From NCBI GenBank assembly GCA_044892505.1, contig CM097883.1, positions 172,670,001 to 172,734,000 on the forward strand: a stretch of 64,000 bases of DNA. The letters run 5' to 3'. Positions 1,723-60,997 of the stretch are shown piece after piece (the stretch's first letter is position 1; every line of letters starts with the position of its first letter). The notes beneath the pieces are model-generated. The model saw only the letters and a program-made list of their open reading frames with translations, was not told the DNA's origin and searched no databases. A program made the position numbers and the translations under genes. The DNA comes from Schmidtea nova (Eukaryota).

Positions 1723-1724
1723 AA

Positions 1725-30615: not shown

Positions 30616-32052
30616 CAGGGATGCCCAAAGTACGGCCATCTGGCCGCATGCGGCCAGATTTACTTTTTTATGTGGCCAGTTTTACTTTATTTCGTTACAC
30701 GTTGTTTTGAAAAAGTAGAATCGATTTATGATTTCTATAAATCCATATTTTCTCGATATCCCCTATAAAAAAATTTCATATAAGAAAAGGTTAAAATAAA
30801 AATCGATTTTTAATTTCCCAAAATCAATAATTTCCTATTTTCGCAAATTGAAAATCGATTTGGCTTAATATCTTTGTAAAGGATATGATCCTATAAGAAA
30901 AGTTTTAAAAAAATCGATTTTTAATTTCCGAAAATCAATTATTTCCTATTGTGAATTTGGAACAAATGGAACAAAAAAAAGTATGGTCAATATGGAAATT
31001 GAAATTAAATGGAAAATAAAACTACTTGTTTTAAAAGTTATATAAATTTTTATTGAATAAAAAAATACATATTTGGAATTGTTTATACTTGTACATTTAA
31101 TTAAATCTGGCAATTGTAAGGTTGAATTATTTATTAATATTAAAATTAAATAATAAATAAATTTACGTCTTGTAGATAAAAATGAATGAAAAAAACGTAA
31201 GTTAAAAGATGAAAACTGCTCATTTCAAGAATCTTGGACCACCGACTTTTTTGTTGAACCAAAAGGTGTTGGCGTTATATGCTTGATTTGTGATGCAGTT
31301 ATTATTCTCAAAGGATATAATATTAAAGAACATTTTTCTAATAAACACAAACAAAAATATGACAAACTTTCAACTCAACAACGTGAATGTGAATTAAAAA
31401 AATTGCGTAAACAAAAAAACTTTCAGCAAAACCTTTTTGTACGTTGTAATGATGAATGTGAAGGCATAAAGTTAGCTAGTATTATAGTTTCTCAGCAAAT
31501 TGCAAAAAGATTAAAGCCGCATTCGGATGGTGAATTTATAAAAGATTGTCTGATTTCAGTTGCAGGTGTTCTAGTTCCTGATAAGGTTAAAATTTTTAAG
31601 CAGATTAATTTATCAAGAAATACAGTTTGTCGCAGGATTACAGATATTTCTACAAAAATTGAAGACACTTTGATAAGTATGTTGGGCCAGCCAAATCGAG
31701 CAGCATCTGAAAATAATACACAATCAATAAAATAAATTTACAACAGAATAACAACAAAATAAATTACCAACACCAAAGCGTAACAAAATAGGCGGCAACA
31801 TCTAAAAGAAATAAAATATAAATCAAACAACAAAAATCTTCAAAACTCACTCATGCGAAGCAGAAAAAATTGGAATATGACAGCGCGTGGGCGGATGTCA
31901 CCAAAGACCTAAAACAAAAATAAAATAAAATAAATTGATGACTAAGAAAAACTTACCGCATGATTAACCAAACAAATCGGCAAGTTAAGTTAGGCACCAA
32001 AAAGCCGGCAACACAAAATAATGAATCAAACATACACACATACTCGATGCTG

Positions 32053-32191
32053 ATTGGCTAACCAACAACACCGGTTGAGTATAAATACTGAAGTAAAATC
32101 AGTATTTGACAATGTCATTTTTACTGAGTGTGAGTAACAGTAGCAACTTGTAGACAACTTGTGAAGCAGTAAATTGGAATAAAAGGTAATT
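32053..32191 (+). promoter_or_regulatory. Candidate LTR core promoter and first splice donor
   Basis: ATTGG (reverse CCAAT) at 32053, TATAAATA at 32080-32087, TCAGT Inr-like at 32099, AATAAA at 32178-32183, AAG|GTAATT donor-like site at 32186. Confidence 0.5.
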
Positions 32192-33112
32192 TCGAGTTGC
32201 ATTCTTATTGATTTAAACCCTCATAATTTTCATTGTTAATCATGATAAAATCCATAAGGTTTTCCGGAGGCCTAACAGCCTGACGGATTCTTGGGGCCTC
32301 TCAGCGCAACACAATCTTTCGGTTGTGAGGTGCTGATGCGGCGGGACCATAGGTGTTCTAAATATTTAACAAGCGGAAGGGGGAAGGGCACATCGGATAT
32401 CTCATGCCATCGCAACATCAGTATGGGTAGAAGCGATTGAAGGGCGTATCATCCGTCACGACAACATCGAGTACATGGGTTTACATAAAAGAAGTGTTGA
32501 TAGACAAAAGTGTTCAGCGTTCGTGAAGTCCAGTAGAGTAACGACGGTTTGGTGCAAAGGGTTAGTATGGAGATATACACTACATAGGTCAGGTGAGTTC
32601 GGAGGCTGACAGAGCTAGCGTCGGAGTAAAACCATGAATCCACAGGATGCCCCAACATATATACGCCTCACGAAGGGTACACAGGATAGTCCCACGAAAT
32701 ATAATACGAGCACAATCTGTACCCAATTAACCTGAGTAAGGGGTCGAACAAGTTCCCCGGATGATGTGACCATTGTTAATTGAAAATGAGGTATGGAGAT
32801 AACACCTGAGATGCGAGTGAGTATGATTGCTGTAGATATAAACCAAAATGGTCTCTGAAATGATGATATTCAAACATAATAAATGATCAAGTGATCATCA
32901 TAAATGAATACAGATCGTCATAAACTACACTGAATTTTTGCGTGGCCAAACCAGTTAAGCAACTTGACATAGTGAATACACTCAACCACATGACGATAAC
33001 ATACAACCTACCTACTATCTTGAACATCGAACCGATCTAACACTGAAACACCAACGGCAACCTACAGAGTTTTACTCTTGAGTCGAGTAGGTCGCCGATT
33101 ATAAATAATTGC

Positions 33113-33781
33113 ATGCACCTAACCAATTCATCACAATCACATCTTCTTGTCTTCAGAAAAATGATCAAGACCGAAGAATATCAAAGAAGTCCGAGCACCT
33201 ATCGACAGATGAAAATGGAAGATTATGTCGGCCGGGAACCACGACGCATCCGTTCCGTCGTCCGGCCAAGGAGGTTCCCTACCATCGAGGGAGAAGTGGA
33301 AGCCCCACGCAGAATTAGCGAAACTGCGCGTCGCCACCTACGACGGTGGACAAGACACCATATGAGTGCAGCCGCAGATGTTCCGGCTTGCGCCTTCACG
33401 ATACAATTACGATGGGAAGGAGACCCCGATTGGATGTCCACCATGGACCCTGCCGAACCAAGGACCGATAGATGGTTCTTCCAATTTCTCGACGAGCAGA
33501 GACGACCCCGCTGGGTATTGAGCAATGGAATGATGACCGGAAGGGCTCTTTTCCAATTAGGATACCTGCTGCTAGACAGGCCTCGGTGTCGCTACACTGA
33601 GGAAGTCTTCACTTATTCCAATGCACCAGGAAGTGTTTCCGTAGAACAACACCCCGAGCCCAAGGAGCTTCACCTCTGGGAGGTGTTTATCTACAAAGAT
33701 AAGCTGAGTTGGACCCAGCCCCAGAAATGTATTGGGAGAATGGAATTCGTCGCGACGAGCATCCTGCCGATCAGGAATTGA
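33113..33781 (+). CDS. LTR-encoded ORF-A, unknown function (likely start ATG 33161); second copy at 59184-59852
   Basis: 222-codon ORF, Trp/Arg-rich. ATG 33161 follows TCTTCTTGTCTTCAG|AAAA. Confidence 0.55.
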   Translation: MHLTNSSQSHLLVFRKMIKTEEYQRSPSTYRQMKMEDYVGREPRRIRSVVRPRRFPTIEGEVEAPRRISETARRHLRRWTRHHMSAAADVPACAFTIQLRWEGDPDWMSTMDPAEPRTDRWFFQFLDEQRRPRWVLSNGMMTGRALFQLGYLLLDRPRCRYTEEVFTYSNAPGSVSVEQHPEPKELHLWEVFIYKDKLSWTQPQKCIGRMEFVATSILPIRN

Positions 33782-33941
33782 GGACATTCAGTTGATTGAT
33801 ACCGAGAAAGAATGATTGTCTTAGATATTGAAATATATGTATTGGTGTGTGACGGTCTTGTTTTGTTTTGAGTGCATGAGAACAACCTAAGGATAAGGTA
33901 GAGTTGTTTAATGACGATAGGATGACCGAAAAATCAGACAC

Positions 33942-34541
33942 ATGACATATACTAACATTAATGATATATTTACAGACATGACGGAAACCAAGGGCAGAGA
34001 TTTCAAGCAAGAGGCGCGAGAACACAAGGCGCGCTCACGAGTCCTGGAGAATCGATTAAGGCAGCTGAATGAGGAGCATCAGCGGATTAAGACTACATGG
34101 TTTAACCCAGAGCGGGTTAAGTCCATCCTGCAGGCTAGGTACAGGGCAGAACGAGTAGCTGAGGAACATGCCAGAGAGATTGCAGCCCTGAAATTAGAGT
34201 TGGCGAATTATTTGAAGGTATCGACTCGCGACTTCATTACCGAACAACTACGCCCAGTGATCAGAGCTAGCACCTTTAATCGATGGATAGACACGATAGC
34301 GGTGACCACGAGCACCCAAACAGAGACCGATACCATCGCAACCACGACGATCGAATCAACAATGAAAACTCCAGCCGGTTCGAAACGAACAAAGAGGAGG
34401 AATCGCTTAGGAGCGAAAAAGCGCAGGGAAAGACGCGCATATGCAGATCGCGTAGGAATAGAGGTAGACTTGCTCAGTGGTCTATCTGAGCAAGAACTAC
34501 TAAATGTAATCCGACCCTCTGTATTATTAAACCATAAATAA
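33942..34541 (+). CDS. LTR-encoded ORF-B: coiled coil plus arginine-rich motif (likely start ATG 33978); second copy at 60013-60612
   Basis: 199-codon ORF with KRTKRRNRLGAKKRRERR. AATAAA overlaps the stop and is followed by a GT/T-rich tract. Confidence 0.6.
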   Translation: MTYTNINDIFTDMTETKGRDFKQEAREHKARSRVLENRLRQLNEEHQRIKTTWFNPERVKSILQARYRAERVAEEHAREIAALKLELANYLKVSTRDFITEQLRPVIRASTFNRWIDTIAVTTSTQTETDTIATTTIESTMKTPAGSKRTKRRNRLGAKKRRERRAYADRVGIEVDLLSGLSEQELLNVIRPSVLLNHK

Positions 34542-34932
34542 ATGTATGAAACGAATGACTTGACTTGTTTTGTTTGATTGTGGAATGTTTGAGAATTGAA
34601 TGTAGATAAAACCCGGATTCATTTAAAGCTGCAGATATCTAAAAAGTACATTACCCTAGGACACTAGAAAGGAGCATAAGTGGGACCGAAAGAAAGCCAC
34701 AGACACCTTCTATCGGTAGTGGTGGACCCGTGAATAAACAAGGGAATAGTAGCCGAAAGGTTGCTCACCTGCCTTGTCATTTCACAACGTTGACACAGCA
34801 CCAACATGATGAGTAGTTAGGGATACATCATGGGTGTCAGCGGGGGAATGTTTTTATGTTGGCGAGATCACCCTAACATATAAAATCATAAGGATCTCAG
34901 TTGTCAATCTAACCAACACACCAGCATAAATT

Positions 34933-34950
34933 TGGGGGCTCAGCCGGGAT
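34933..34950 (+). other. Primer-binding site, tRNA-Pro type
   Basis: TGGGGGCTCAGCCGGGAT matches the classical PBS-Pro TGGGGGCTCGTCCGGGAT at 16/18 positions. Starts 6 nt after the LTR end. Confidence 0.85.
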
Positions 34951-35465
34951 TAAATCGATCTTTGTGGGAAAAAGTGAATGCGATATCTGCGGACAGTTTA
35001 GAGCGCCTGAACCGGGATGAATTGAATTTAGCGAGGAAAGGTAAAGTAAATAATAACAGAGGGTTTAAGTGTCCTGAAGCAAGAATGAATCGGGTTGAAA
35101 AATAATAAATAAAAGTATGAGTGTAAAATAATGAGATTGATGAACGTGATGAAAGTATGCATGAGAATGAAAGTATGAGGACGAATGAAGCATGATGACT
35201 AGTATGTGGAATAACAGTATGAAAAGTGATGAAAAGTATGCATGACGTAAGGTAAAAGTATGCTGAAAAATGGGTATGGTATGAGTGCGAGTAACTAACA
35301 ATGATCATGTCGGGGCGACATTCAAGAACACGGGGGGATACGCAAGTAACGACGCAAAACCGAACAACAGAAAGCGAACAGTAGGGCTACCATAGAATAA
35401 GAATGATAAATAATAAAAAAAAAAAAAAAAATCGATAACAAAATTAATGAGAATTCATTCAGGGG

Positions 35466-35924
35466 ATGGAGAACAAAATAAAAGAAATGCAAACGTTTTT
35501 CGAGACAAATAACGAGACAGTGGAGACAATAACGAGAAAGTTAAAACGACTCGAGGTAGGAGGATATCACGAGCCGACAAACAACACAGAAAGAGCTGAA
35601 ATAATGATGAGCATAAGCGAGAATAAGATAACAGTGGATACAGCAACACGATATCAATGGTATAGAGAAAGATTAAACAACCCTGAGATGAATATCGAGT
35701 GCCACAGACTAGAGCAACAGTTAACAACAAAACACGATGAGTGGATAAGAATAACAACAGAACATACGAGACAATATCTGACGTGTTATATCTGTGAAAT
35801 GAACAAAATACAGATAATGTTGTTGCCATGTGGGCATTTTCGATTCTGTAATGACTGTAAAATAAATGAACGATGTCCTATGTGCAACCTTCCCGTATCC
35901 GAAAGAATAACAGTGTACTTGTAA
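35466..35924 (+). CDS. Accessory protein with C-terminal IAP/MDM2-type C3HC4 RING (candidate E3 ligase); no BIR seen
   Basis: CYICEMNKIQIMLLPCGHFRFCNDCKINERCPMCNLPVSERITVYL at the extreme C-terminus. AATAAA at 35929. Confidence 0.8.
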   Translation: MENKIKEMQTFFETNNETVETITRKLKRLEVGGYHEPTNNTERAEIMMSISENKITVDTATRYQWYRERLNNPEMNIECHRLEQQLTTKHDEWIRITTEHTRQYLTCYICEMNKIQIMLLPCGHFRFCNDCKINERCPMCNLPVSERITVYL

Positions 35925-36618
35925 TAGAAATAAAGTTTTGAACAAGTGCAGTTGTTATTGAAATTATGAGGGTTTAATAATGATTTGGTAAAAATGACCT
36001 AAGTAATCATGAGCTACTTATGAGTAGTCCGATAAGCACCCATTGGGGGGAACCAACTGATCAACTTACCCGAGATGTGTAGAAAGGGGCCAATCGCGGA
36101 TATTGGAAAGCTCTTGTGATGTGACTGATCACCACATCGTGCATCAGTGGACCAATGCGATCTTTTTATATATTTTGGTTGGGGTGAAAGGTAGGGACAA
36201 CTCAATGAGGTTTAGGCGCGCGCAGAAAAACTATAAAAATAGGATGTTAAAACTGATCAGTAGAGAAAGAGAGTGAGGAAATGAATAATAAAAGTGGATA
36301 AATGTGGTATATGATGAAAGGCACGTAATCAGCTCGCATAAGGTAAAATCAAGTAGAGAGGTTGACGAATCAATAATAGAATAAAGGGGTGTAATAGATG
36401 AACCGAGTTAATGGAAAACTCGAGGTTAAATGAATTCCTTGAAAGAAAGGAAATGATAAAAGGGGTCCTAAAGAGAAAGGATTTGCCCATAGTTCTTGAA
36501 AGATAGAACTTAACGAAACGCGACAATAGATTCTCCGAAGAAGCATAAGTGACCACTGGGAGGAACATCCCGAAGCAACACATGCAACCACTGAGAGATG
36601 ATATTTCGAGTTTTCGTT

Positions 36619-37180
36619 CGTGAGCATAGGTCTCATAGTGAGCATAGGTCTCGTCATAAAAATAACATCCTAGTGAGCATAGGTCTCGTCATAAAACATA
36701 ACATCCTAGTGAGCATAGTTCTCGTCAGTGAGCATAGTTCTCGTAGTGAGCAGAGTTCTCATTTAATAAACACAAGACCAGCGAACCTAGTCCTCATCAG
36801 TGAGCGTAGTTCTCATCAATAAACATAGCCATCGTAGTGAGCGTAGTTCTCATCAGGAAACATAATTCCTGTAGTCACCATCAGTGAGCGTAGTTCTCAT
36901 CGGGGAACATAGTCCCCAGGGCAAAGAGTTTCCATCAGTAAGCAAAACCCTCATAACAACCATGTTTTGCCAGTGAGCATAGTTCTCGTTAGTGAGCATA
37001 GTTCTCGTCAGTGAGCATAGTTCTCGTCAGTGAGCATAGTTCTCGTCAGTGAGCATAGTTCTCGTCAGTGAGCATAGTTCTCGTCAGTGAGCATAGTTCT
37101 CGTCAGTGAGCATAGTTCTCGTCATTGAGCATAGTTCTCGTTAGTGAGCATAGTTCTCAGCTGTGAGCATAGTTCTCGTT
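36619..37180 (+). repeat. 19-bp repeat family AGTGAGCATAGTTCTCGTC: about 9 dispersed copies, then 11 tandem copies (36972-37180)
   Basis: Direct counting. Confidence 0.95.
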
Positions 37181-37504
37181 CGAAATAAAATATTGAGTAA
37201 AAGCCCACGAGAAAGACGACGAAGTGAGGCAGATGAGGACTAAATTACGTATAAAACTATCCGGATAGTGAAGATCAACAAGCGATAATAGAGATGAATA
37301 AGTGACAATGAGGATAAATGATGAATAGTGAAAATGAATAGCGAATAATGAGGAATAAGGGTTGAAAGAAACCGAGGTAATAATGAGAGAGTTGAAGGTG
37401 CGCACCTGGGTATTGATAAATGCGAGTAAAGCTGATTATGTGGCCTAATGATGTTAAAGTATGCATACAGAGGAGTAATAAAGTAAAGTGAGTAAGTGGA
37501 GGGT

Positions 37505-37966
37505 GCTGACTGGAAAACCCAGCAGACCATGAGATTCGATGGGAATAAAATGAAACCGGTTTGTTAAGACAGGTAAAGTGGTAAAGACGCTAGCTGGAAA
37601 ACCCAGCAGGTCAATGATAACGATCAGGAAAGATCGAGATAACAAAAGTGAGTAATAATAAAGTGGTGAAATTGAGGACGCTGACTGGAAGACCCAGCAG
37701 GTCAAAAGTGATGATCATCGGAGTAAAGAGCAGGTAAAAGTCGACAGTGAAGAGATAAAGGATGGATAATAAGAGCGCTGACTGAAAAAACCCAGCAGGC
37801 TAATGAAACGACAAGTGAGGTCGAGAATAATGAAACAGAAGTAAAAGGTGAAATTAAAAGCGCTGACTGGAAAACCCAGCAGGCTAATGAGATAATGAGT
37901 GAAGTTGAGAGAAATAAAGTCGAGATAAAAGGTGAGATTAAAGGCGCTGATTGGAAAGCCCAACAG
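37505..37966 (+). repeat. Six regularly spaced copies of a 21-nt hairpin motif GCTGACTGGAAAACCCAGCAG
   Basis: Starts at 37505, 37589, 37680, 37777, 37862 and 37946 (period 84-97 nt). Confidence 0.92.
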
Positions 37967-38531
37967 GCCAACGAGAGATGTCAGTTGAATTAAAGGTGGG
38001 TGGAGATGAGAATTGAAATGAAGTAGTAAACGTAGTGTGAATAGGAAATAAAGCGAATAGTCGAGAAACAGAGTAGTCGACAGATAAGGGGAAATTAGAA
38101 CTCAGAGCCAGAGAAGCCTGAGAAAAGTAAAGGGGATAATAAGAGCGCTGAGCGACAAAGTAATTGGGGAACTGGGGAAAAGTAATTGGTGTATTTGATA
38201 AAGAATAGATAATTGATGCGACTGCATAGATAATTTAAATAGACTTAAAATCAAGGGAAATGGGAAAAATGGGGATCTTCATGAATTATGACTACACCCG
38301 TGAGAGGGACGAGAAACACGATAACGGGGACGTATCGTGTAAGTGATTATTTGTTTTAAGGAAACAAATCAATCAAGCAATTCAAAGCAATCTAGCAGTC
38401 AGAGCAATCAAAGGAAACAAATCAAAGAAGAAGCAAAGCAAAAGCGGAGTAGAAAATCAGTTGAGAATATAAGAAATTGAGGAATAGACAAAATTGAGGG
38501 ACGAGAAACAAGATCAGGTATAATACCAATC

Positions 38532-41500
38532 TTGACAGAAGCAGAAAGAAAAGCAGCAAAAAGAACAAGAACAGGTAACAAGCCTAAGCAACAAAAGAAC
38601 AAACAAGTAGAGATCAGCGATAATTCGAGTAATAAAGAGAATCAAGAAGAAACCCCAGAGGATCCAGAAGTACGAAACGAAGTAGAAACGATAGACAGTG
38701 AACTAGTCAGGGAAAACAGAACAAGAAGCGAATCAAGAGATAACGAAACAGAGAGTAGCGAAGAAGAAGAGTCGAATTCAGAAACAAGTGGTGAACTAGA
38801 AGCAAAGAAAACTAGTACAGTATTCCAAGACAGTGGAATCGGGATGAGTGAACACAGAGAGGATCTGAGAGAAAAATTCAAGGGCGAACCATTCAATGGA
38901 GACGCCAGTAGATTGGATACGTTTCTGAAGGAATTTGGCATATTTGTGGATATATGCGGATGGAGTGCAGAAACGTTGGCAAATCGAATCCCGCTATACT
39001 TGAAAGATAGCGCATTGGATCTGTATATCGAAAAGAGATCGGGAAGTAATCCACCCAGAACGTGGGAAGAGATCAAGGAGTTCTTCCAACAGACGTTTGG
39101 GATAAACAAAGTGCTGAATGAAGCATTCGATGAGTTTTCAGCAAGAAAACAAAGGAGAAACGAGTCAAATGCGGTGTACGCAAGCGAATTAAGAAAGTTG
39201 GCGAAACTGGCGTTCAATAGAGGAAGCCCAGTAGACGAAGAATTGATGACAGCGTTATTCGTACGAGGTCTCAGGAGACCTGACATCAGAGCACAAGTGG
39301 GATGCAAAGGATGTAAAACAGTAGATGAAGCGTTGGAAGCAGCCAACCTATTCGAATTGCATATGGCAATGAATGACATGAGAATTACGGCGGTAATGGG
39401 AAAAACGACAGAAGATGAAGAACAAGGAAAAAGAAACATGAATCAAAGTATTCCCCATTCGCAGAGATTGTTCAAAGAACCGCCAGCGAGGAAGAATAAC
39501 GGATATATCACGGTGAACACGAGTGGAGGAAATAGTTATAATGACAGGCAGAATAGGCAATGTCAGACGTGTGGGAAAAACGGACATTGGCAACAAGATT
39601 GTTTTCAGAATGTAGCCTGCAAACTGTGTGGACAAAAAGGTCACTCAGAGAATCGATGTTATGGGAAAACGTGTTACACATGTGGAAAAACCGGACACAT
39701 GTCAAAAGACTGTAATCAACAGAGAAGTTGGGCAAACAGTGGAAATAGACCGAATTACGGGAATCGACCAAGCTATGGGAATCAAGGTCAACAACGGAAC
39801 AACCCAAACAGCAGTGCAAATGAAGCCAGTATGAAAGAAGCTAAGTTGAGACAGGAGGTATCCAGATTACACGAGATAATCGAAAGCATGGCAAAGGGAA
39901 GCCAACAAGCTGCTCAACCAAAGATAAACATGATCCAGTTAATAGAAGCTGAGGCCGAAAGAGAAAACAGAGAAAGCCAACAGAAACATAATCAAGAATG
40001 GGCTAGAATACGACGAGAAGAAGAACAAGTCAGACAGCAACGATTACAACAGTTAAAAAATGGAAATCCAAGGATCAACATGATGCGAGCAATGATGGAA
40101 GAGAAGCAGCAAGATGAGTCAGACGAGTTAGAAGTTAAAGAGAAAAGAAACGAAGAGCAGAAAAAAGAAGAAGTGAATCAGGAAATAGAAACTGCGGAAC
40201 AGAGTAAAAAAGATGAAGAAACAGAAAAAGAAGCGAATCAAGAAGAGGAAGTGAGAATCAAACAAAGAGGAATGATAGTGATCATGCCGAATGATCATTG
40301 GTTTCGATTCAAATACGATGTAAAAGAAGAAGTGGGAAGATTGTTCAAGAAAGTAAATGAGATGATTCCGGGAGTGATGAAACTGCCCAGAGAAGCCTTC
40401 CTACAAACAGAAGACTTACCGGAAGTAAAGTTAAAGATGACTGATATATGGGAAGATATGGGAGTAACGGAGACGAAAATAAACGTGATGATCATCAGAG
40501 AGGTGGAACCGGAGAAAATCCCACCACCTGTGAAACATCAAACTCGGATCAGTCGAATATTCAAAGGGAAAATAAGACGAAGACGGCTGGAAGAAATAGA
40601 CGAGTTAGAAAAGAGAATGGGAAAAGCTGAAATAACGGGAAACGAGAATGAACTAATACAAGAAGTTAGCAAAAACGAAGCGAGACCAACCGCGCATATT
40701 GGGATGCTGAGACACCCAAGACAAGAGTTGTCAGATGAGGAAGACGACAGCGAAGTTAGCAGTCTGGTAGGAGACATGCTAAAGGAACCAGAAAACGAGG
40801 ATAAAAAGATGGAAGTAGTCGAGACGATAGAAACGATGTCAGTAAAGGAAGAGGAAATTCAGAAGCTGATGGATAACGCGTTGGAAGTAATCCATAACGA
40901 GGAGTTTATCGACGGGAAACGATATAGAAAGTTTATACGAGCAGTATGGCAGACGAAGTATAAAGAGTGGTTACAAGAAAGAGAAGTGAGGGTAATACAA
41001 GAATTCATAGAGAAGTTATTGAAAGAGCCACTGAACGAATACGTAATACAAATATGGATAAACGAGTGTTCACCAAGAATCTGGATAAGGAACCCAATGA
41101 CGGATGGAATTTACCGATGGGTTGAGGACAGATTGGGAAGCTCGTACCAAGACAAATTCATATATTCGGAAAACGGATTGGTGAAAAAAGGAACGCATAT
41201 GATAGACACAGGCATCTGGCCAGGAGAAATAACAACGCTATCTATATGCAACACCAAGAAGGAAGAGAACTTACAGGGAATCGTCAAAGAAGCGAATACG
41301 TGTTATGAGATGAGAATAAAACCTCAGTTGATGGAGGCAAAGGAAAGAATCTTGGCGGAGAATTTGAATACGATGATAGAACAGATCATCCAACAAATCA
41401 AGAAACATCGAAAGGAATTGACGAAAAACGAGTATGAGAATTTGAAACAGTGTATCGAGAACATACGAGATACAAGTCAAACGAGACATTCAAATTTCAA

Positions 41501-51977: not shown

Positions 51978-51986
51978 ATCAAAGGA

Positions 51987-53723
51987 TTGGAGAAAGAAAA
52001 GTCATACATAATATGCGCAATAAAGCAGAGAGGAGAACCAAAAGCACCTCAAGTAACTGCATGTCAATTATATAAAGCAACAGAAGCGCTGAAAATACAG
52101 AAATGGATTGAGAAAAGAAGCGAAGAGACAACGAGAAGAACAGAAGTGGAACCAGAGAAAGGGAAGAATCAAACCGAAGCAGAAGAGGGAATCAGAAACC
52201 GAACAGAGAAAGAAAGAATAACCAAAAATCCAGCGGGCAAATTAACATTCCAACCAGAATTGATATGTGTAGCATTAATATTAATCCTCATTAAGAGAAT
52301 CATGGAGGACATAGATATCAGCGTGATGACGTTAGTAAACATCCAAGATCAACGAACAACGAATGGAAGATGTTGGGGACGAAACAATGAGGTAATTGGA
52401 ATCAGCGAAACAAGAGAAATAGTAGAGGCGGAGACAAATGAGGAAATAGAGATAACTGAAATGGAGGCAGATAGAAAATGTGAACTATGTCTCATGGAAA
52501 AAGCAGCAAACGGAAACAGACCAGGAACAAGCGAGTGTAAAGTGTTCCAAGCAAAGGAGATAATTGAGTTCCCAAAAAGAAAGAAACAAGATCAAGAAAT
52601 GATTGCGAATGAAGTAGTAACAGTAGAGATGAAAAACATTGGTCGGAGAACAATTGGGATGTGTTGGAGAAAATACATCGGAGTATCGACCAACAACATA
52701 ATACCGCAATGTAGAACGAGAGAACGAGGAATCCCGTTTCAACTAAATGGATTCGAAGTCGGACAAGCATATGAAATTTGCGTAATCCGGAGAATAAGAG
52801 AAATAATACAAAGAAGCCTGGAGTGCAAACTGTACAAGACGCCAGAGCAAATTAACGGAACGAGAACGATTGAAATGGGAAGAAGTCGACAGAGGAAAAG
52901 AAAGTCAAGAAGAATCACGACAACCAACAGTCAAGGAACTCAACAGACAACAACAGAAGGGACGACAATAGAAAACGAACCGGAATCAACAACGTTGATA
53001 ATATGGAAGATCCATAAAAAAGTCCTAGAAATCTGTTGGACATTAATGCCAAACAGTATGGGAAAGTCCCCACGAAACTGTCAAAAGACATCAAATGATA
53101 AAGGAGAAATAATTGAAGTGGAAATGAGGAAGTTGAAAACAAACGCAGAATACGAAGTGTGTGCAATCGAAGAAGTAGATGCACAAGGAAATCCACAAGA
53201 AAGGTGCGAAACCTATTACACGCCAAGGAACATAACGATAAAAAGGGGAACCCACAAGTTAGTATTCCGAGAATTGAGTCAGAAAAGAGAACAAACAGAG
53301 ACGGAGGAAATACTACAAAATCAACAAGAAAGATGGGAACCCGAGAAAGTGATCGAAGAAGTCAGACAGAGACAACAACAATATGAACAATGGGAAGCAG
53401 AATGGAAAGGTCAATATGGCGTGATGACAAACCAAAGTGAAACTCCGAAGATGAGCATTGGGAAAACAATAATGGGATTAATCAGCATGGGAGTATTCAT
53501 AGGGTGTATACCACTGATAACGATCATGATAGTATGTTGGAGATATGGCATGAGAAATAAGACCATAGCAGTAAAATGGCCAGACGTAAAGGTCACGAAC
53601 TACAACATAAAACTACCAAAAGCAGTACGAGAAGAGCTGAGAAGACGATCAAAACATGAAGAGATGTGGGTACAGATCGAGGACGAGGAACTGTACGAAG
53701 GAAAACCAGTGGTGATTGTATAA
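51987..53723 (+). CDS. Membrane protein with FN3-like Cys-containing repeats; in frame with the polyprotein across a single TAA
   Basis: Repeated CW...L..L....Y.IC.I....C..Y.T pattern. Hydrophobic segments LICVALILILI and IMGLISMGVFIGCIPLITIMIVCW. 51987-38532 is a multiple of 3. Confidence 0.7.
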   Translation: MEKEKSYIICAIKQRGEPKAPQVTACQLYKATEALKIQKWIEKRSEETTRRTEVEPEKGKNQTEAEEGIRNRTEKERITKNPAGKLTFQPELICVALILILIKRIMEDIDISVMTLVNIQDQRTTNGRCWGRNNEVIGISETREIVEAETNEEIEITEMEADRKCELCLMEKAANGNRPGTSECKVFQAKEIIEFPKRKKQDQEMIANEVVTVEMKNIGRRTIGMCWRKYIGVSTNNIIPQCRTRERGIPFQLNGFEVGQAYEICVIRRIREIIQRSLECKLYKTPEQINGTRTIEMGRSRQRKRKSRRITTTNSQGTQQTTTEGTTIENEPESTTLIIWKIHKKVLEICWTLMPNSMGKSPRNCQKTSNDKGEIIEVEMRKLKTNAEYEVCAIEEVDAQGNPQERCETYYTPRNITIKRGTHKLVFRELSQKREQTETEEILQNQQERWEPEKVIEEVRQRQQQYEQWEAEWKGQYGVMTNQSETPKMSIGKTIMGLISMGVFIGCIPLITIMIVCWRYGMRNKTIAVKWPDVKVTNYNIKLPKAVREELRRRSKHEEMWVQIEDEELYEGKPVVIV

Positions 53724-53847
53724 AGGGTGGAATATGAGTGTAAATAATAGTGTAAAAAACCAATGCATAACCGTATACGTATGGGTATAAATATTATAAA
53801 ACATAAAAACAGAAAAAAGAGAATGATGTATATAATCTAGAAAAACG

Positions 53848-54198
53848 ATGAATCAAGAAACCACAGAGATGTCGATGATGACAAGATGGAAAGTACAATG
53901 TGACCTGCTAGCCAGAACAGTAAATGAATTACAGAGCCAGTTGACGGCAAAAACGCAATTATTAACCGAGAGTTATAACTGTAATTTTGAAGCGATGAAC
54001 AAAATCGAGATCCAACAAATACAGATAAACGAATTACAGAACGAGAATCGAACATTAAATGAAGTAAACAATTGGCAAGCAGAGGAAATTGACCGATTAA
54101 CGAGACATGAAGAAGAAGAGATACCGGATAGTTGGACGAGCTGGATTGTAAATGAGATAGACGTGTATCCAGAGCCAGATTCAACTGAGGATGTATAG
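53848..54198 (+). CDS. Small coiled-coil protein with acidic tail, unknown function
   Basis: 116-aa ATG ORF with heptad-like Q/E/L content, bounded by short intergenic spacers. Confidence 0.55.
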   Translation: MNQETTEMSMMTRWKVQCDLLARTVNELQSQLTAKTQLLTESYNCNFEAMNKIEIQQIQINELQNENRTLNEVNNWQAEEIDRLTRHEEEEIPDSWTSWIVNEIDVYPEPDSTEDV

Positions 54199-54287
54199 TG
54201 AATAAGCGGAAAATTGTGTAAATACGTGTAAATAAAGAACCAGAAAAATCAAAAATATGGGGAAATTGATGTAAATATTGTTGTAGA

Positions 54288-55700
54288 ATGAGAGCAGAAA
54301 GGGAAGCAGATTACCAAACGATCGAGATTCTAAGAAGAGAAAATCGACAATGGGGAGTAAATGTGACGTGTGTAAAGTGTAAAAATCTACTGTTAAAACC
54401 GAGACAAACGGAATGTGGATGCAGGATGTGCACCAAATGTATATTACAAATAATCAGTGAAAGTGAGACAAGAAAGTGTCCAGAGTGTGACGATAAACTA
54501 CTGATCAACGAGACGAAACCAGATAAAGCAATACAAAAGGAGATCTGGAAGATAAAAACAGAATGTATAAACCAACCATGTGAGTGGAAAGGTCAAATAA
54601 TCGAGCTAAGACAACATCTGGAGAAATGTGAAAACAAGAAAGCGATATGTGAAAAGTGTCAACAGACAATAACCATCAAGCAGTCGAAAGGTCACAAGAA
54701 TGAGTGCAAATCAGAGATAATAGAGTGTCAATACTGCGAACAAAGAGAGACGAGAGAAGTAATCGAAACAGAACATCTCAACGTAGCAGAAGAGAAAGTG
54801 TGCGGAAAATTCAGAGGAATTTGTCCAAGTAATTGTGGAACCGGAGAAGAAGTGATGTTGAGAGAACATTGGGAACAATGCGAATCAAGACCAAGAAAGT
54901 GCGTATGGAGTAAACAAGGATGCGTAGTAAAGAAAACAAGCAAAGAAATGAAAGAACATTTAGAAACAGAAACGGTACAACACGCCGAGATGTTAACAGC
55001 AAATTTGAACGGAATGGAACAAACCATACAGAAACTGGGAAAAGAAATTGAATCTCAGAGGATAATGACGGAGTTATTACTGGAAACGAGAGAGCAATTC
55101 GAGCTCACCAGAGAGAAAATGATGGAGAAAATCAAAGTCATAGAGACATTGGTAAAAGAAGTAAACGTGCGACATCAAATGTGGATACGAGATACAGAGG
55201 ATATCGAGAATTTACCTGTTGCACCATATGTATGGAAAATCAAGAACTTCAACGACAAGTTCGCAGCAGCAAAAGCAGGAAGTCAAGTGTCGGTAACAAG
55301 TCCACCATTCTATCTGTGGAAAAATGGATACAAAGTTCGAATGAGAATTTATCCAAATGGAGATGGATCAGGAAAGGAAACGCATGTGTCATTATTCTTT
55401 GCGTTGTGTAAAGGTGGTTACGACGACATATTAGAATGGCCACTAGAAACAAAGGCTATAATGAGAGTGAGAAACTCGAAAGAAACAATAGCGAGAGTAT
55501 TCAAAATTGATGGTAAGCACGAAGCTTACAAAAGACCAACCACAGAATGTTCATTAGCGACTGGAGAACCAAAATTCATACCACACCAAACAATGTGGGA
55601 GATGTTGTACGACGACAACCTATACGTAGAATTGGAAATCGAAAAGAAAGCAAGTACAACAGCGATGAACACGAAGTCAACGAAAGGATGGTTAGAGTAG
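54288..55700 (+). CDS. Full-length intronless TRAF-family protein (RING, TRAF zinc fingers, coiled coil, MATH)
   Basis: CVKCKNLLLKPRQTECGCRMCTKC..CPEC; CEWKG....LRQHLEKC; YVWKIKNF..SPPFY..GYKVRMRIYPNGDG.GKETHVSLFF..KGGYDDILEWP. Most like TRAF2/3/5. Confidence 0.93.
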   Translation: MRAEREADYQTIEILRRENRQWGVNVTCVKCKNLLLKPRQTECGCRMCTKCILQIISESETRKCPECDDKLLINETKPDKAIQKEIWKIKTECINQPCEWKGQIIELRQHLEKCENKKAICEKCQQTITIKQSKGHKNECKSEIIECQYCEQRETREVIETEHLNVAEEKVCGKFRGICPSNCGTGEEVMLREHWEQCESRPRKCVWSKQGCVVKKTSKEMKEHLETETVQHAEMLTANLNGMEQTIQKLGKEIESQRIMTELLLETREQFELTREKMMEKIKVIETLVKEVNVRHQMWIRDTEDIENLPVAPYVWKIKNFNDKFAAAKAGSQVSVTSPPFYLWKNGYKVRMRIYPNGDGSGKETHVSLFFALCKGGYDDILEWPLETKAIMRVRNSKETIARVFKIDGKHEAYKRPTTECSLATGEPKFIPHQTMWEMLYDDNLYVELEIEKKASTTAMNTKSTKGWLE

Positions 55701-55789
55701 TCAGAGTGAACGACCCTGTAAATAAAGTGTAAAAATCGACGACAACCATAAACGTATAGTATAACCAGTGTAAATTTGTAAATTGCAGA

Positions 55790-56950
55790 ATGGAAAACGC
55801 AAATGAATATGTAATCGAAGAGGAAACGAGAAACGAGATGTCAAACGAACAAGAAGCAATCGAAAGAGAAATCGAAAAGAGATGTAAAATGGAAGTGGAA
55901 CAAAGAACCAGAGAATTACACGAAGTGATGACAAACAATTTCTACGAGAAACTAGAATGCGAACGACAAATGGAGTTATATCAACTAGAACTCGAGGAAG
56001 TGAATAAAGAGATAGAAAAACTGACAGCCCAAATGGAGAAGCTAAAAGGAACGAATGTACGAAGTCGACAGAAGATAGAAGAGACCTATCAGCTGATGAG
56101 AAAACAAGCAGAACATTACAAAAACATGATGAAAATGCGAAGAGAAGAGAGGGAGAAACAAGAGGAAAAGATGGAGGTAAAAATACTAGCTATCAAGGCT
56201 CAAGCGAGACATTGGAAGATGGAGTCTAAACGAGTGTATAAAGAAGCCAAAGAGATAATCAGAAAGACAGCATACAGCGAAGATTGGAAACTGTATCAAG
56301 AGATAGACGAATTGAAAGAGGAATTGGAACAGAGAAAGCGACAAGAACAAGCAAACAAAGAATGGAGTCGAAAACGACAGCGATTTATTCGAGAACAAGC
56401 AAAGGAACTAAAGAAAACGCAATGGCAAATACAGATGATAAATGGAGAAATGCGAGGTATCAGACAGAAAGAGGAAGCGGAAAGACAAAAGTTGATCAGG
56501 GAAAAAGAAAGTCTGGAAAGAGATGTAAATGGTTATCAAGGGGTGGTGACCCAAAAGAAAATGGAGTTGAAAGCAGTAAAAGAAAGACATGCGGAATCAA
56601 ACCGAGCTTACGAGGAAAACATAACGAACTTGACGAAAGAAAACGAGGAGCTGAAACAACAAATAATAACCCTGAAAGCAGAGAAAGAAACCATAGAAGT
56701 ACAAACCGAACCTACAGAAGTAGAAGCCCTGAAGAGAAAAGTGGAAGAGATGGAAAGACAAATTGAAACTCTAAGCGAACAATCAGATTACATGGAGTAT
56801 CTGTTAGATGAAGAGATACAAATCTCTCGAACGTATCAAGACGAAATTGCAATGTGGAGAAGTAGAGTGGTGTGGTTACCGTTTATACCACCACCACCAA
56901 TGGAGCTCCAAGATGAAGGGTTCCATGAACCAGAGGAGACGGATGTGTAA
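55790..56950 (+). CDS. 386-aa long coiled-coil protein with a C-terminal PPPP motif
   Basis: Continuous E/K/Q/R-rich heptads; ATG ORF. Confidence 0.7.
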   Translation: MENANEYVIEEETRNEMSNEQEAIEREIEKRCKMEVEQRTRELHEVMTNNFYEKLECERQMELYQLELEEVNKEIEKLTAQMEKLKGTNVRSRQKIEETYQLMRKQAEHYKNMMKMRREEREKQEEKMEVKILAIKAQARHWKMESKRVYKEAKEIIRKTAYSEDWKLYQEIDELKEELEQRKRQEQANKEWSRKRQRFIREQAKELKKTQWQIQMINGEMRGIRQKEEAERQKLIREKESLERDVNGYQGVVTQKKMELKAVKERHAESNRAYEENITNLTKENEELKQQIITLKAEKETIEVQTEPTEVEALKRKVEEMERQIETLSEQSDYMEYLLDEEIQISRTYQDEIAMWRSRVVWLPFIPPPPMELQDEGFHEPEETDV

Positions 56951-57023
56951 AAAGAGGCGAAAAATCCGTGTGTAAAAATGTACAAATCGATGTAACAGGT
57001 ATTAATCAGTAGAATAATCAGAA

Positions 57024-57548
57024 ATGATCTGGCTCAAAACCCTATCAATCCTAACGATTATGTTAGCTACAACAATCATGAACCTTTCGACAACCGAAAT
57101 CCAAAGAACCCTGTCAAACGAGATATCCCAAGAGATTGAAAAACAACTAAACGAAGTCAGAGAAGACTTGAAACAATTAATACGACAAATGCGAATCAGT
57201 CATGATCATCGCAAACCCTTGCAAACCCTATTCAATCAAATTGAGAAGATCCGAGAAATCCATAAAACCTTTCAAGATCACCTAAAGCCAATCAAAGGTC
57301 AAACCCAAATCGAATCCGAAATCCGAAACAGATGGATCATCGTCGGAATAGTCACAATGACAATATTGACAATCATCCTGATCATCGTGATTACCTATAC
57401 CCTATATCGAATCAGAAGCCTCAAACAACAACAAACGATAATGTGTAGATGCGCTAAAAGAGAAGCAAAAACCCAACAAAGGATGAGAAGTCATCTACGA
57501 CAAATTCAAGCCCGATACGAAATGCAGTCAACAAGTGAAAGGACCTGA
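57024..57548 (+). CDS. Small type-I membrane protein (signal peptide, helical ectodomain, TM, basic tail)
   Basis: MIWLKTLSILTIMLATTIM signal-like N-terminus; WIIVGIVTMTILTIILIIVITYTLY TM segment. Confidence 0.7.
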   Translation: MIWLKTLSILTIMLATTIMNLSTTEIQRTLSNEISQEIEKQLNEVREDLKQLIRQMRISHDHRKPLQTLFNQIEKIREIHKTFQDHLKPIKGQTQIESEIRNRWIIVGIVTMTILTIILIIVITYTLYRIRSLKQQQTIMCRCAKREAKTQQRMRSHLRQIQARYEMQSTSERT

Positions 57549-57750
57549 AAATCGACCCCTATGAGCCAGAAACATTGAACTGTGTAACAATAAAAACATG
57601 ACAATGACAATGTGTGACTTTGTATAAATGAGTATGAAAGCTACCACCTTATGTGGTTTTGCATGTAAGTTCTGTCACGAACTTTTTATGTATGTTGATG
57701 TAGGTATATGCATGTAATTGCGGGACGCAATTTTAGGGGACCCCGAGTGA

Positions 57751-60700
57751 TGTTGGGCCAGCCAAATCGAGCAGCATCTGAAAATAATACACAATCAATA
57801 AAATAAATTTACAACAGAATAACAACAAAATAAATTACCAACACCAAAGCGTAACAAAATAGGCGGCAACATCTAAAAGAAATAAAATATAAATCAAACA
57901 ACAAAAATCTTCAAAACTCACTCATGCGAAGCAGAAAAAATTGGAATATGACAGCGCGTGGGCGGATGTCACCAAAGACCTAAAACAAAAATAAAATAAA
58001 ATAAATTGATGACTAAGAAAAACTTACCGCATGATTAACCAAACAAATCGGCAAGTTAAGTTAGGCACCAAAAAGCCGGCAACACAAAATAATGAATCAA
58101 ACATACACACATACTCGATGCTGATTGGCTAACCAACAACACCGGTTGAGTATAAATACTGAAGTAAAATCAGTATTTGACAATGTCATTTTTACTGAGT
58201 GTGAGTAACAGTAGCAACTTGTAGACAACTTGTGAAGCAGTAAATTGGAATAAAAGGTAATTTCGAGTTGCATTCTTATTGATTTAAACCCTCATAATTT
58301 TCATTGTTAATCATGATAAAATCCATAAGGTTTCCCGGAGGCCTAACAGCCTGACGGATTCTTGGGGCCTCTCAGCGCAACACAATCTTTCGGTTGTGAG
58401 GTGCTGATGCGGCGGGACCATAGGTGTTCTAAATATTTAACAAGCGGAAGGGGGAAGGGCACATCGGATATCTCATGCCATCGCAACATCAGTATGGGTA
58501 GAAGCGATTGAAGGGCGTATCATCCGTCACGACAACATCGAGTACATGGGTTTACATAAAAGAAGTGTTGATAGACAAAAGTGTTCAGCGTTCGTGAAGT
58601 CCAGTAGAGTAACGACGGTTTGGTGCAAAGGGTTAGTATGGAGATATACACTACATAGGTCAGGTGAGTTCGGAGGCTGACAGAGCTAGCGTCGGAGTAA
58701 AACCATGAATCCACAGGATGCCCCAACATATATACGCCTCACGAAGGGTACACAGGATAGTCCCACGAAATATAATACGAGCACAATCTGTACCCAATTA
58801 ACCTGAGTAAGGGGTCGAACAAGTTCCCCGGATGATGTGACCATTGTTAATTGAAAATGAGGTATGGAGATAACACCTGAGATGCGAGTGAGTATGATTG
58901 CTGTAGATATAAACCAAAATGGTCTCTGAAATGATGATATTCAAACATAATAAATGATCAAGTGATCATCATAAATGAATACAGATCGTCATAAACTACA
59001 CTGAATTTTTGCGTGGCCAAACCAGTTAAGCAACTTGACATAGTGAATACACTCAACCACATGACGATAACATACAACCTACCTACTATCTTGAACATCG
59101 AACCGATCTAACACTGAAACACCAACGGCAACCTACAGAGTTTTACTCTTGAGTCGAGTAGGTCGCCGATTATAAATAATTGCATGCACCTAACCAATTC
59201 ATCACAATCACATCTTCTTGTCTTCAGAAAAATGATCAAGACCGAAGAATATCAAAGAAGTCCGAGCACCTATCGACAGATGAAAATGGAAGATTATGTC
59301 GGCCGGGAACCACGACGCATCCGTTCCGTCGTCCGGCCAAGGAGGTTCCCTACCATCGAGGGAGAAGTGGAAGCCCCACGCAGAATTAGCGAAACTGCGC
59401 GTCGCCACCTACGACGGTGGACAAGACACCATATGAGTGCAGCCGCAGATGTTCCGGCTTGCGCCTTCACGATACAATTACGATGGGAAGGAGACCCCGA
59501 TTGGATGTCCACCATGGACCCTGCCGAACCAAGGACCGATAGATGGTTCTTCCAATTTCTCGACGAGCAGAGACGACCCCGCTGGGTATTGAGCAATGGA
59601 ATGATGACCGGAAGGGCTCTTTTCCAATTAGGATACCTGCTGCTAGACAGGCCTCGGTGTCGCTACACTGAGGAAGTCTTCACTTATTCCAATGCACCAG
59701 GAAGTGTTTCCGTAGAACAACACCCCGAGCCCAAGGAGCTTCACCTCTGGGAGGTGTTTATCTACAAAGATAAGCTGAGTTGGACCCAGCCCCAGAAATG
59801 TATTGGGAGAATGGAATTCGTCGCGACGAGCATCCTGCCGATCAGGAATTGAGGACATTCAGTTGATTGATACCGAGAAAGAATGATTGTCTTAGATATT
59901 GAAATATATGTATTGGTGTGTGACGGTCTTGTTTTGTTTTGAGTGCATGAGAACAACCTAAGGATAAGGTAGAGTTGTTTAATGACGATAGGATGACCGA
60001 AAAATCAGACACATGACATATACTAACATTAATGATATATTTACAGACATGACGGAAACCAAGGGCAGAGATTTCAAGCAAGAGGCGCGAGAACACAAGG
60101 CGCGCTCACGAGTCCTGGAGAATCGATTAAGGCAGCTGAATGAGGAGCATCAGCGGATTAAGACTACATGGTTTAACCCAGAGCGGGTTAAGTCCATCCT
60201 GCAGGCTAGGTACAGGGCAGAACGAGTAGCTGAGGAACATGCCAGAGAGATTGCAGCCCTGAAATTAGAGTTGGCGAATTATTTGAAGGTATCGACTCGC
60301 GACTTCATTACCGAACAACTACGCCCAGTGATCAGAGCTAGCACCTTTAATCGATGGATAGACACGATAGCGGTGACCACGAGCACCCAAACAGAGACCG
60401 ATACCATCGCAACCACGACGATCGAATCAACAATGAAAACTCCAGCCGGTTCGAAACGAACAAAGAGGAGGAATCGCTTAGGAGCGAAAAAGCGCAGGGA
60501 AAGACGCGCATATGCAGATCGCGTAGGAATAGAGGTAGACTTGCTCAGTGGTCTATCTGAGCAAGAACTACTAAATGTAATCCGACCCTCTGTATTATTA
60601 AACCATAAATAAATGTATGAAACGAATGACTTGACTTGTTTTGTTTGATTGTGGAATGTTTGAGAATTGAATGTAGATAAAACCCGGATTCATTTAAAGC

Positions 60701-60997
60701 TGCAGATATCTAAAAAGTACATTACCCTAGGACACTAGAAAGGAGCATAAGTGGGACCGAAAGAAAGCCACAGACACCTTCTATCGGTAGTGGTGGACCC
60801 GTGAATAAACAAGGGAATAGTAGCCGAAAGGTTGCTCACCTGCCTTGTCATTTCACAACGTTGACACAGCACCAACATGATGAGTAGTTAGGGATACATC
60901 ATGGGTGTCAGCGGGGGAATGTTTTTATGTTGGCGAGATCACCCTAACATATAAAATCATAAGGATCTCAGTTGTCAATCTAACCAACACACCAGCA
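57751..60997 (+). repeat. 3' LTR of the giant element
   Basis: Direct repeat of the 5' LTR, followed by the TSD AGTA. Confidence 0.97.

Follow-up and report, generated by a model that had tools for sequence, protein, structure and literature searches.

What kind of element occupies positions 31680 to 60997 of this 64,000-nucleotide stretch of the Schmidtea nova genome (assembly GCA_044892505.1, contig CM097883.1, forward-strand positions 172,670,001 to 172,734,000; the whole stretch is called the window, and its own numbering is used)? The locus holds an element of 29,318 bp bounded by long terminal repeats (LTRs), whose cargo, i.e., what it carries besides gag, env and pol, raises the question of whether it is a retrotransposon with passengers or something closer to a complex virus. 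The reading we consider probable is that of a young copy of an amplifying Burro-like Ty3/gypsy family, with a giant gag-env-pol polyprotein and seven accessory genes that are under selection and are likely spliced from the LTR leader. The data show an autonomous, amplifying family, with selection on env and on all of the cargo, and with one splice.

Insertion age, copy number and selection

As the first-pass annotation had stated, the element is complete in structure: its LTRs run from TG to CA, an AGTA target-site duplication stands on both sides, and the primer binding site (PBS) is perfectly complementary to the final 15 nt plus CCA of the host tRNA-Pro(TGG), which was located in the genome. 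The annotation had also called the 3.2-kb LTRs near-identical and the element young, and a full alignment of the pair by self-comparison bears this out, with 1 mismatch across 3,247 bp (at 32263/58334). Given this single mismatch, the insertion is very recent. The LTRs enclose an internal region of 22.8 kb, the GC content of the element is about 40% versus 22-34% for the 5' flank, and each of the 17 copies that have an LTR pair carries the same purine tract ahead of the 3' LTR. Although complete in structure, the window copy is not intact in its coding, because of a stop at 51975-51977 and a 1-nt frameshift in LTR open reading frame (ORF) 1 near 33713, the latter in comparison with four of four close copies inspected.

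The gap between LTR end and PBS measures six bases (34927-34932) and is constant in the copies inspected; many retroelements have two bases there. A tandem array of genes for the primer tRNA, tRNA-Pro(TGG), with a 308-bp period, lies at about 459.6 Mb of G000:C1 (L227), and 1,185 pattern matches to this tRNA are present across the host genome.

Searching the genome with the DNA of the element's TRAF gene yielded 861 first-look candidates, with 40 of 40 scored at 96-100%, while the reverse transcriptase (RT) search yielded 1,062, and at least 299 LTR leaders fit one exact pattern. Twenty of the 39 other top TRAF-DNA matches were sampled, each as three separate 10-kb stretches. These copies are about 95-96% identical to the window copy internally, and in 17 of the 20, those with both LTRs in view, the LTR pairs are 99.5-100% identical. 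Since LTR pairs are this similar while the copies differ by about 4-5% internally, many distinct lineages were inserted recently.

The ratio of nonsynonymous to synonymous change (dN/dS) was computed over all pairs with a column bootstrap; as the pairs are not independent, the intervals are rough, yet the contrast is large. RT-RNase H presents a ratio of 0.02 and the cargo ranges from 0.02 to 0.35, against 1.0 and 0.63 for two non-coding controls. In each of the 18 coding regions tested, the upstream-frame controls aside, the ratio is lower for shared variants than for singletons. Among covered copies, the tail ORF is open in 17/20, env in 17/19 and RT-RNase H in 17/19. These values indicate that all cargo regions are under purifying selection. 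A second sample of 15 copies was picked by RT similarity, in order to offset the TRAF-based choice: TRAF is present at 99% or more in 11, two have internal deletions, and two are interrupted before TRAF.

It is thus highly improbable that the cargo is captured host DNA carried along as a neutral hitch-hiker. Young copies with cargo-removing deletions would fit that explanation, but every cargo gene has a dN/dS far below the controls, which we count as refuting it, and the neutral decay named by the first-pass annotation as what would overturn its view was not found. Two further observations speak against neutral cargo. A sister family (B, L071-L090; 728 first-look candidates, 5 copies analysed) keeps the genes and order of the window family (A) at 34-57% cargo identity and 75% core identity, and the MATH domains of the elements group separately from those of host TRAFs.

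The polyprotein and the accessory genes

The window frame 38844-51977 encodes 4,377 aa, with Pfam matches in the order CCHC knuckles, fusion glycoprotein, protease (PR), RT, RNase H, integrase (IN) and ankyrin. The full polyprotein frame extends over 38844-53723 (4,959 codons) and is split by a single stop in the window copy only; in 16 of the 20 sampled copies it is uninterrupted from the start of the stretch to the equivalent of 53723, the other four being broken elsewhere. A separate gene at 52302-53723 was considered and ruled out, as this region is the end of the polyprotein frame, open at the stop site in 20 of 20 others. The 121 open codons that precede the first ATG are likely translated; their dN/dS is 0.19, whereas the +1 and +2 frames give 2.8 and 0.44, respectively. 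Because these codons are open and under selection, the true polyprotein start probably lies upstream and is non-ATG, or the start is supplied otherwise.

The element had been described as enveloped, and its Env indeed matches Monjiviricetes_fusion (PF24664) with an E-value of 4e-68. A hydropathy scan found the Env anchor (aa 2216-2232), one further stretch (aa 4313-4329) and another two within the tail, while the signal-like stretch before Env is a by-eye call below the threshold of the scan. PR, RT, RNase H and IN follow in Ty3/gypsy order with catalytic motifs present. The 140-aa spacer between PR and RT, a dUTPase-like position in Burro, has a dN/dS of 0.06 and is without a Pfam match at E 0.05. 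A short motif recurs at polyprotein aa 360, 410, 545, 618, 1079, 3124 and 3575, several of which are domain borders; the sites include the MATH position of a related family (C, below) and are possible protease sites.

Regarding the cargo, the TRAF, IAP-type RING and ankyrin assignments of the first-pass annotation are supported by Pfam or PDB, whereas Bcl-2-like is found via family profile and fold only, FN3 is moderate and the ubiquitin-like (Ubl) call is weak. TRAF and RING are separate genes, as proposed; Bcl-2, Ubl and ankyrin are instead domains of the polyprotein. The candidate Ubl domains have dN/dS values of 0.07 and 0.08 (two domains tested). Their profile gave a single weak match, a designed ubiquitin at E 7e-4, with no Pfam match and no ubiquitin-like fold among the fold-search rows. 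The helical domain between two of them (window 42123-42389) has a confident model, with pLDDT of about 80, and a fold search with aa 1094-1182 returned generic helical bundles only.

For the Bcl-2 region, the window sequence alone gave no match in Pfam or PDB sequence searches and nothing usable in Atlas, and a profile of families A, B and C reached a probability of 5.9% against host Bcl-2s (hhalign). A family profile joint with relatives matches Bcl-xL at E 1e-3, and at the homologous position in related families the domain is above the cut-off of PF00452 (Pfam Bcl-2). With the model of the region, 21 of 50 fold-search rows are of the Bcl-2 family (best Z 9.5, root-mean-square deviation (rmsd) 3.1, 119 aligned), a score to be read with the model's mean pLDDT of 45 in mind, as helical bundles may score so by chance. 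The best fold matches include the viral proteins A179L, KsBcl-2 and BHRF1, whose Z values tie with those of cellular proteins.

The tail model is poor (pLDDT 40.7), its best domain having a Z of 7.7 (rmsd 2.8, 76 aligned) in a list dominated by FN3 domains. FN3 matches at 0.83 in the Atlas search are a lead only, and PDB sequence searches with the tail ORF and the tail profile returned no match; the FN3-like assignment of the predicted fold is given as moderate. Homologues of the cargo part were sought more widely: none of 3,112 candidates among long proteins qualified, and one protein, P0005, was found among 1.84 billion representatives.

Instead of the roughly eight ORFs beyond gag and pol that had been counted, the accessory genes number seven: two in the LTR, the RING gene and four after pol. 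The FN3 membrane proteins listed as genes of their own are not among them, given that the FN3-like ORF is the polyprotein tail and that the membrane protein TM174 is not FN3. The accessory RING has the cIAP2 RING as its best PDB match (E 8e-7), its PDB matches are RING-only, and no BIR domain was found in Pfam scans of 10 element proteins at E 0.05. For four accessory proteins, Pfam assigned no family.

LTR ORF1 (210-261 aa) is open in 18 of 20 copies despite lying in a variable part of the LTR. This LTR middle (32401-34480) is far more variable than the remainder, with identity down to about 40% in alignment bins. Several strongly diverged types of it are paired with near-identical internal regions, and copies 5 and 10 are without the cassette; the pattern suggests that LTR cassettes are exchanged through recombination. 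ORF1 has a 34% match at L183:9495-9854, near a host TRAF gene. The Arg/Lys-rich motif of LTR ORF2 is shared with look-alikes at L071:5132-5737 and L074:1079-1618 and has no Pfam match; by analogy to retroviral regulators, we take it to be a possible RNA-binding or nuclear signal. Coordinates are collected in Table 1.

Table 1. Positions of the features of the element in the window, with their conservation or basis
Feature	Positions	Strand	Conservation or basis
5' target-site duplication, AGTA	31676..31679	.	
5' LTR, 3,247 bp, TG...CA	31680..34926	+	self-comparison
TATA-like box, putative promoter, implying a U3 of about 430 bp	32080..32086	+	in 21/21 aligned LTRs
AATAAA signal fused to major 5' splice donor, AG/GT at 32185/32186	32178..32191	+	donor-like in 19/21 LTRs
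LTR ORF1, 211 aa in most copies, acceptor AG 33155-33156	33161..33781	+	dN/dS 0.35 (8 rows)
LTR ORF2, coiled coil, Thr-rich part, Arg/Lys-rich motif, acceptor AG 33974-33975	33978..34541	+	dN/dS 0.10 (18 rows)
PBS, tRNA-Pro(TGG), 18/18 nt	34933..34950	+	starts 6 nt past LTR end
Accessory gene, coiled coil and IAP-type RING	35466..35924	+	dN/dS 0.21; open in 18/18 covered copies
Leader tandem repeats, two blocks (units of 18-19 bp and about 84 bp)	36620..37976	+	
Open frame, 121 codons, upstream of first polyprotein ATG	38481..38843	+	
Gag, three CCHC knuckles (aa 240, 259, 277)	38844..39923	+	Pfam; dN/dS 0.05
Three candidate Ubl domains (aa about 733, 906, 1184) and helical domain (aa 1094-1182)	41040..42638	+	
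Bcl-2-like domain, BH2-like GGW, degenerate BH1	43233..43640	+	dN/dS 0.02
Signal-like stretch, Env ectodomain (mononegavirus / gB-type fusion family), membrane anchor aa 2216-2232	43725..45539	+	dN/dS 0.03
PR, 140-aa spacer, RT, RNase H, IN	46128..49343	+	Pfam; dN/dS 0.02-0.06
Ankyrin repeats	49761..51113	+	Pfam; dN/dS 0.10
Polyprotein tail: second signal-like stretch, FN3-like repeats, anchor (53487-53537), short cytosolic end	51780..53723	+	dN/dS 0.17-0.24
In-frame stop cutting the polyprotein frame, private to window copy	51975..51977	+	open in 20/20 other copies
Accessory gene o116, 116 aa, coiled coil and acidic end	53848..54198	+	open 20/20; dN/dS 0.06
Accessory gene TRAF, full-length, intronless: RING, zinc fingers, coiled coil, MATH	54288..55700	+	open 19/20; dN/dS 0.09-0.11
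Accessory gene CC, 386 aa, long coiled coil	55790..56950	+	open 16/20; dN/dS 0.13
Accessory gene TM174, 174 aa, single-pass membrane protein, not FN3	57024..57548	+	open 19/20; dN/dS 0.15
Purine-rich tract ahead of 3' LTR, putative polypurine tract	57736..57750	+	
3' LTR, 3,247 bp, second copy of ORF1 and ORF2	57751..60997	+	self-comparison
3' target-site duplication, AGTA	60998..61001	.	

What the cargo does is a separate matter from its conservation. Bcl-2, TRAF, IAP-type RING and ankyrin jointly point to one pathway, and the TRAF retains the full layout of RING, zinc fingers, coiled coil and MATH under selection, both of which disfavour a role confined to the element's own particle. Such a role, in which the cargo would serve assembly, trafficking or integration (scaffolds, ubiquitin-linked budding) and not host death or immune signalling, is unlikely in our judgement. 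It would nevertheless account for the degenerate BH1, for a Bcl-2-like domain that alone fails the Pfam and PDB sequence searches in the window copy, for a RING without BIR, for the four accessory proteins without a family, and for the amplification of relatives of about 17 kb (families D/E, below) without detectable RING, TRAF or ankyrin.

Splicing from the LTR leader

From the start of the LTR it is 400 bp to the TATA-like box, and about 100 bp more to AATAAAAG/GT. Among the LTR leaders with the exact pattern, 296 have a G after AATAAAAG, and the next base is T in 296 of 296. Three leaders lack this G. In two of them, the donor is joined exactly to the sequence after the ORF1 acceptor, with ORF1 open, as judged against unspliced copies with the same LTR type; the third looks like a point change. 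The exact loss of the intron from two genomic LTRs is evidence, at the level of DNA, that the intron from the LTR donor to ORF1 is spliced in RNA that is later copied back, and that the ORF-bearing LTR part derives from the RNA 5' end. Internal deletion junctions were also considered as splice products and were rejected, presenting short homologies or no clear GT-AG.

AG acceptors stand ahead of the ATGs of RING, o116, TRAF, CC and TM174; the distances, in ascending order, are 1, 1, 2, 3 and 7 nt. In the scheme we propose, transcription would start about 430 bp into the 5' LTR, the unspliced RNA would be the genome, and donor 32186 would be joined to the AG acceptors 1-7 nt ahead of the accessory ATGs, which would yield messages with one gene each.

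For the four genes after pol, an operon resolved by spliced-leader trans-splicing of the host and internal polyadenylation, instead of (or besides) cis-splicing from the LTR leader, would be an alternative of rather low probability. The spacers of the 3' genes measure 73-124 bp, near the flatworm operon mode of about 100 bp given in the available part of PMC8629364; TGTAAA occurs 10 times in 375 bp of spacer versus 1.7 expected (0 of 2,000 shuffles reach 10), and two of the four spacers contain AATAAA. The sole evidenced splice, however, is cis and from the LTR donor. In addition, the flatworm spliced leader ends in AUG, and the distances from acceptor to ATG vary in frame, so that nothing points to a leader AUG in frame.

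Such cis-splicing recalls the complex retroviruses (HIV, foamy viruses), in which the major donor is close to the 5' end and next to the poly(A) signal, splicing gives access to the accessory genes, and accessory proteins interfere with the host. The window family resembles them in its LTR donor beside AATAAA, in accessory genes reached by splicing (proposed beyond ORF1), and in proteins that would interfere with the host. It differs in its Ty3/gypsy RT, in a class III-type Env in frame inside one polyprotein, in being about three times their size, and in having genes within the 2.7-kb R/U5 part of the LTR.

Relatives, the virus question and what the element means

The element has the LTRs, target-site duplication, tRNA PBS and PR-RT-RNase H-IN order of Ty3/gypsy (Metaviridae). 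Its closest published counterpart in layout is Burro/GYPSM1, of over 30 kb, with a 4,873-aa polyprotein, MATH_TRAF, BIR, ankyrin, BCL2-like and Ubi/SUMO-like domains and an in-frame env with mononegavirus matches, for which a provirus hypothesis and an apoptosis/ubiquitin theme are already published (PMC6431247). The group comprises Burro1-4/GYPSM1 of Schmidtea mediterranea and a Burro-like element of Dugesia tigrina, with lengths of about 30 kb, of which up to 25 kb are internal region, and one polyprotein of about 4,900-5,100 aa. In it, a Gag with three CCHC knuckles, Ubi/SUMO-like, Bcl-2-like, in-frame Env and PR-RT-RNase H-IN stand in succession, together with ankyrins, MATH/TRAF, RING, tandem repeats and accessory ORFs. 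The window family shares the giant size, a polyprotein of about 5,000 aa, Env between Gag and Pol, the Bcl-2-like domain just ahead of Env, and MATH/TRAF and ankyrin cargo. The architecture that the first-pass annotation put forward is, hence, largely described already, an outcome that it had itself named as one that would refute its view. Of its likeness to a complex virus, the retrovirus-like splicing scheme stands, with its two exact intron losses, while the provirus idea was in print (PMC6431247).

The differences lie in the placement of the cargo. MATH is in the polyprotein in Burro1 and in an upstream accessory ORF in the D. tigrina element (PMC6431247), whereas in the window element it belongs to a full-length TRAF downstream of pol; Burro1/GYPSM1 has BIR, and none was found in the window element. 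Because its polyprotein is without MATH and no BIR was found, the element would be Burro-like rather than Burro1 itself. The FN3-like tail, the two spliced LTR genes and the four-gene 3' array are absent from section 7 of PMC6431247. A literature search, mostly without subscription journals, did not find selection data, a downstream full-length TRAF, an FN3-like tail or spliced LTR genes, and Burro is mentioned once in the available part of PMC11410931.

Flatworm elements of gB-type GAG-ENV-POL layout, Schmidtea included, are catalogued in PMC13524379. Smed_errantivirus_1-6 share with the window family a Ty3/gypsy pol, an env before pol and a homologous env (60/140 residues with Smed_5, by hand count). 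The window family is not among these six; families D/E, F and C are closer, their env matching errantiviruses 1/2, 3 and 6 respectively (by eye). As in gB-type errantiviruses, the env ectodomain lies between a signal or transmembrane stretch and a transmembrane segment, before pol, and multiple intact copies exist. The main text of PMC13524379 does not mention Burro, TRAF, ankyrin, fibronectin or accessory.

Families A, B and C present 87-92% identity in RT-RNase H (87.5% for C) and are grouped at 100 in a quick tree. In family B the FN3-like tail is in frame and doubled, and TRAF is present in 4 of 5 copies. Family C (L171-L173, L225) has the Burro1 layout, with a RING ORF, MATH within a 4,706-codon frame and LTRs of more than 3.2 kb; its polyprotein also ends in an FN3-like tail, with a sub-threshold fn3 match. 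MATH is inserted at about aa 1073-1083 in family C and in P0005, where A and B have a clean gap. A wider clade (support 99, quick tree) adds the smaller gag-env-pol families D, E and F and unnamed proteins; among the matches listed, all RT relatives are Ty3/gypsy-type proteins or unnamed. Families D/E (L121-L140) are of about 17 kb, with 850-bp LTRs and a downstream ORF of 469-483 codons without a Pfam match. In family F (L222-L224), gag-Bcl-2-env-pol is accompanied by a membrane tail and, downstream, by an ORF of 640 codons that has no Pfam match; a Polinton-like element (by eye) is inserted in this family. P0029, P0030, P0031, P0033 and P0036, of the same RT clade, have a hydrophobic anchor after integrase, so that a post-integrase membrane tail may be a trait of the wider clade.

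The MATH domains of families A, B and C form a group from which host TRAFs are separate (91/96 in one tree, 93 in another), and they all start with AP(Y/F)xW. Both observations suggest a single old MATH/TRAF capture, present today as a complete gene in A/B and as part of the polyprotein in C. In tests of their placement, with groups named after the first tree viewed, p-AU is 0.059 versus the tandem-cluster clade (not significant) and 0.039 versus the long-frame host group. The genome also holds a large host TRAF/MATH gene cluster at G000:C2, about 405-455 Mb (L141-L170), distinct from the element-borne TRAFs; a host TRAF expansion is reported in the available part of PMC6109357. Element TRAFs as the source of this cluster are not favoured, since the element MATHs group apart.

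Other parts of the window hold unrelated features. A small gag-pol LTR element lies at 5105-9677 (-), bounded by a 104-bp repeat at 99% identity. At 15281-16143 (+), two frames resemble exons of a host SLC3-type heavy-chain gene, and a frame at 23316-24341 (-) we take to be piggyBac-like. A hAT-like transposase fragment (Pfam E 4e-5) is at 61550-62275 (+), and fragments at 1686-5132, 29414-30667 and 62376-63991 resemble, by eye, the Polinton-like ORFs of L223-L224.

Whether the family is a true infectious virus spreading between animals, with the genomic copies as proviruses and the cargo as an immune-evasion kit like those of large DNA viruses, was weighed against vertical inheritance. Env is constrained like RT (dN/dS 0.03 versus 0.02), a second surface protein is predicted, viral proteins are among the best, if tied, Bcl-2 fold matches, and many diverged recent lineages have exchanged LTR cassettes. 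However, a viral-contig scan, in a set that may lack records close to this genome, found 0 loci; each related family has its own likeness among the families of S. mediterranea (by eye), as long vertical inheritance would have it; and conservation of Env is equally explained by spread from cell to cell inside one animal. We therefore regard an infectious virus of this kind as improbable. The element does share a Bcl-2 fold, an IAP-type RING and ankyrins with the apoptosis kits of large DNA viruses (ASFV A179L, KSHV vBcl-2, EBV BHRF1, poxvirus ankyrins, baculovirus IAPs), an analogy only, given that the Z-scores tie with those of cellular Bcl-2 proteins.

Several points weigh against the Burro-like, selected and spliced element preferred here. 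Its family placement draws on architecture and on by-eye comparison with published env fragments, and young copies exist in which internal deletions remove cargo. Among the proposed splices, the evidence points to donor-ORF1 only: the 299 leaders contain no ORF2, RING or 3'-gene join, a weak objection, since one would not expect copying of joins that lie past the PBS. The Bcl-2, Ubl and FN3 calls depend on profiles that are weak and on models of low confidence (mean pLDDT 45 and 41), and the Bcl-2 alignment held relatives already Pfam-positive for Bcl-2. As BH1 is degenerate, anti-apoptotic action of the Bcl-2-like domain is not assured. At host level, the available part of PMC8532177 describes BURRO1 of S. 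mediterranea as PIWI-repressed and intestine-enriched upon de-repression, but BURRO1 RNA interference left the smedwi-2 phenotype unchanged and so lends no support.

With these reservations, the polyprotein of the Burro-like element would thread the membrane of the endoplasmic reticulum twice. The stretch after the Bcl-2-like domain would be the signal peptide of Env, the Env anchor would leave PR-RT-RNase H-IN-ankyrin on the cytosolic side again, and the FN3-like, membrane-anchored tail would be exported by means of a second signal. Cleavage would fall to the element protease and the signal peptidase of the host. Env would carry particles from one cell to another within the same animal, e.g., into stem or germ cells. 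In the cell that produces them, the most likely effect of the Bcl-2-like domain, TRAF, IAP-type RING and ankyrins would be to dampen cell death and innate signalling. The infectivity and the effect on TNF/NF-kB signalling that the first-pass annotation proposed remain inferences, and spread between animals is possible. A bolder version is rather doubtful as a whole: Burro-like elements as living complex invertebrate retroviruses, with a 26-kb RNA genome, two surface proteins from a membrane-threading polyprotein, seven spliced accessory genes (among them a full-length TRAF that was captured), and LTR cassettes that can be swapped, infecting planarian stem or germ cells while blocking death and innate signalling.

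A new class of agent is not established; the headline architecture and the virus-like reading were already in print. The 2019 review's idea that Burro meddles with apoptosis and ubiquitination, however, had domain lists only, and the selection data add genetic support to it. The TRAF module is found in two states within one genome, as a whole gene and as a polyprotein domain, and an expression scheme with one splice evidenced in DNA makes the Burro idea testable in a tractable animal.

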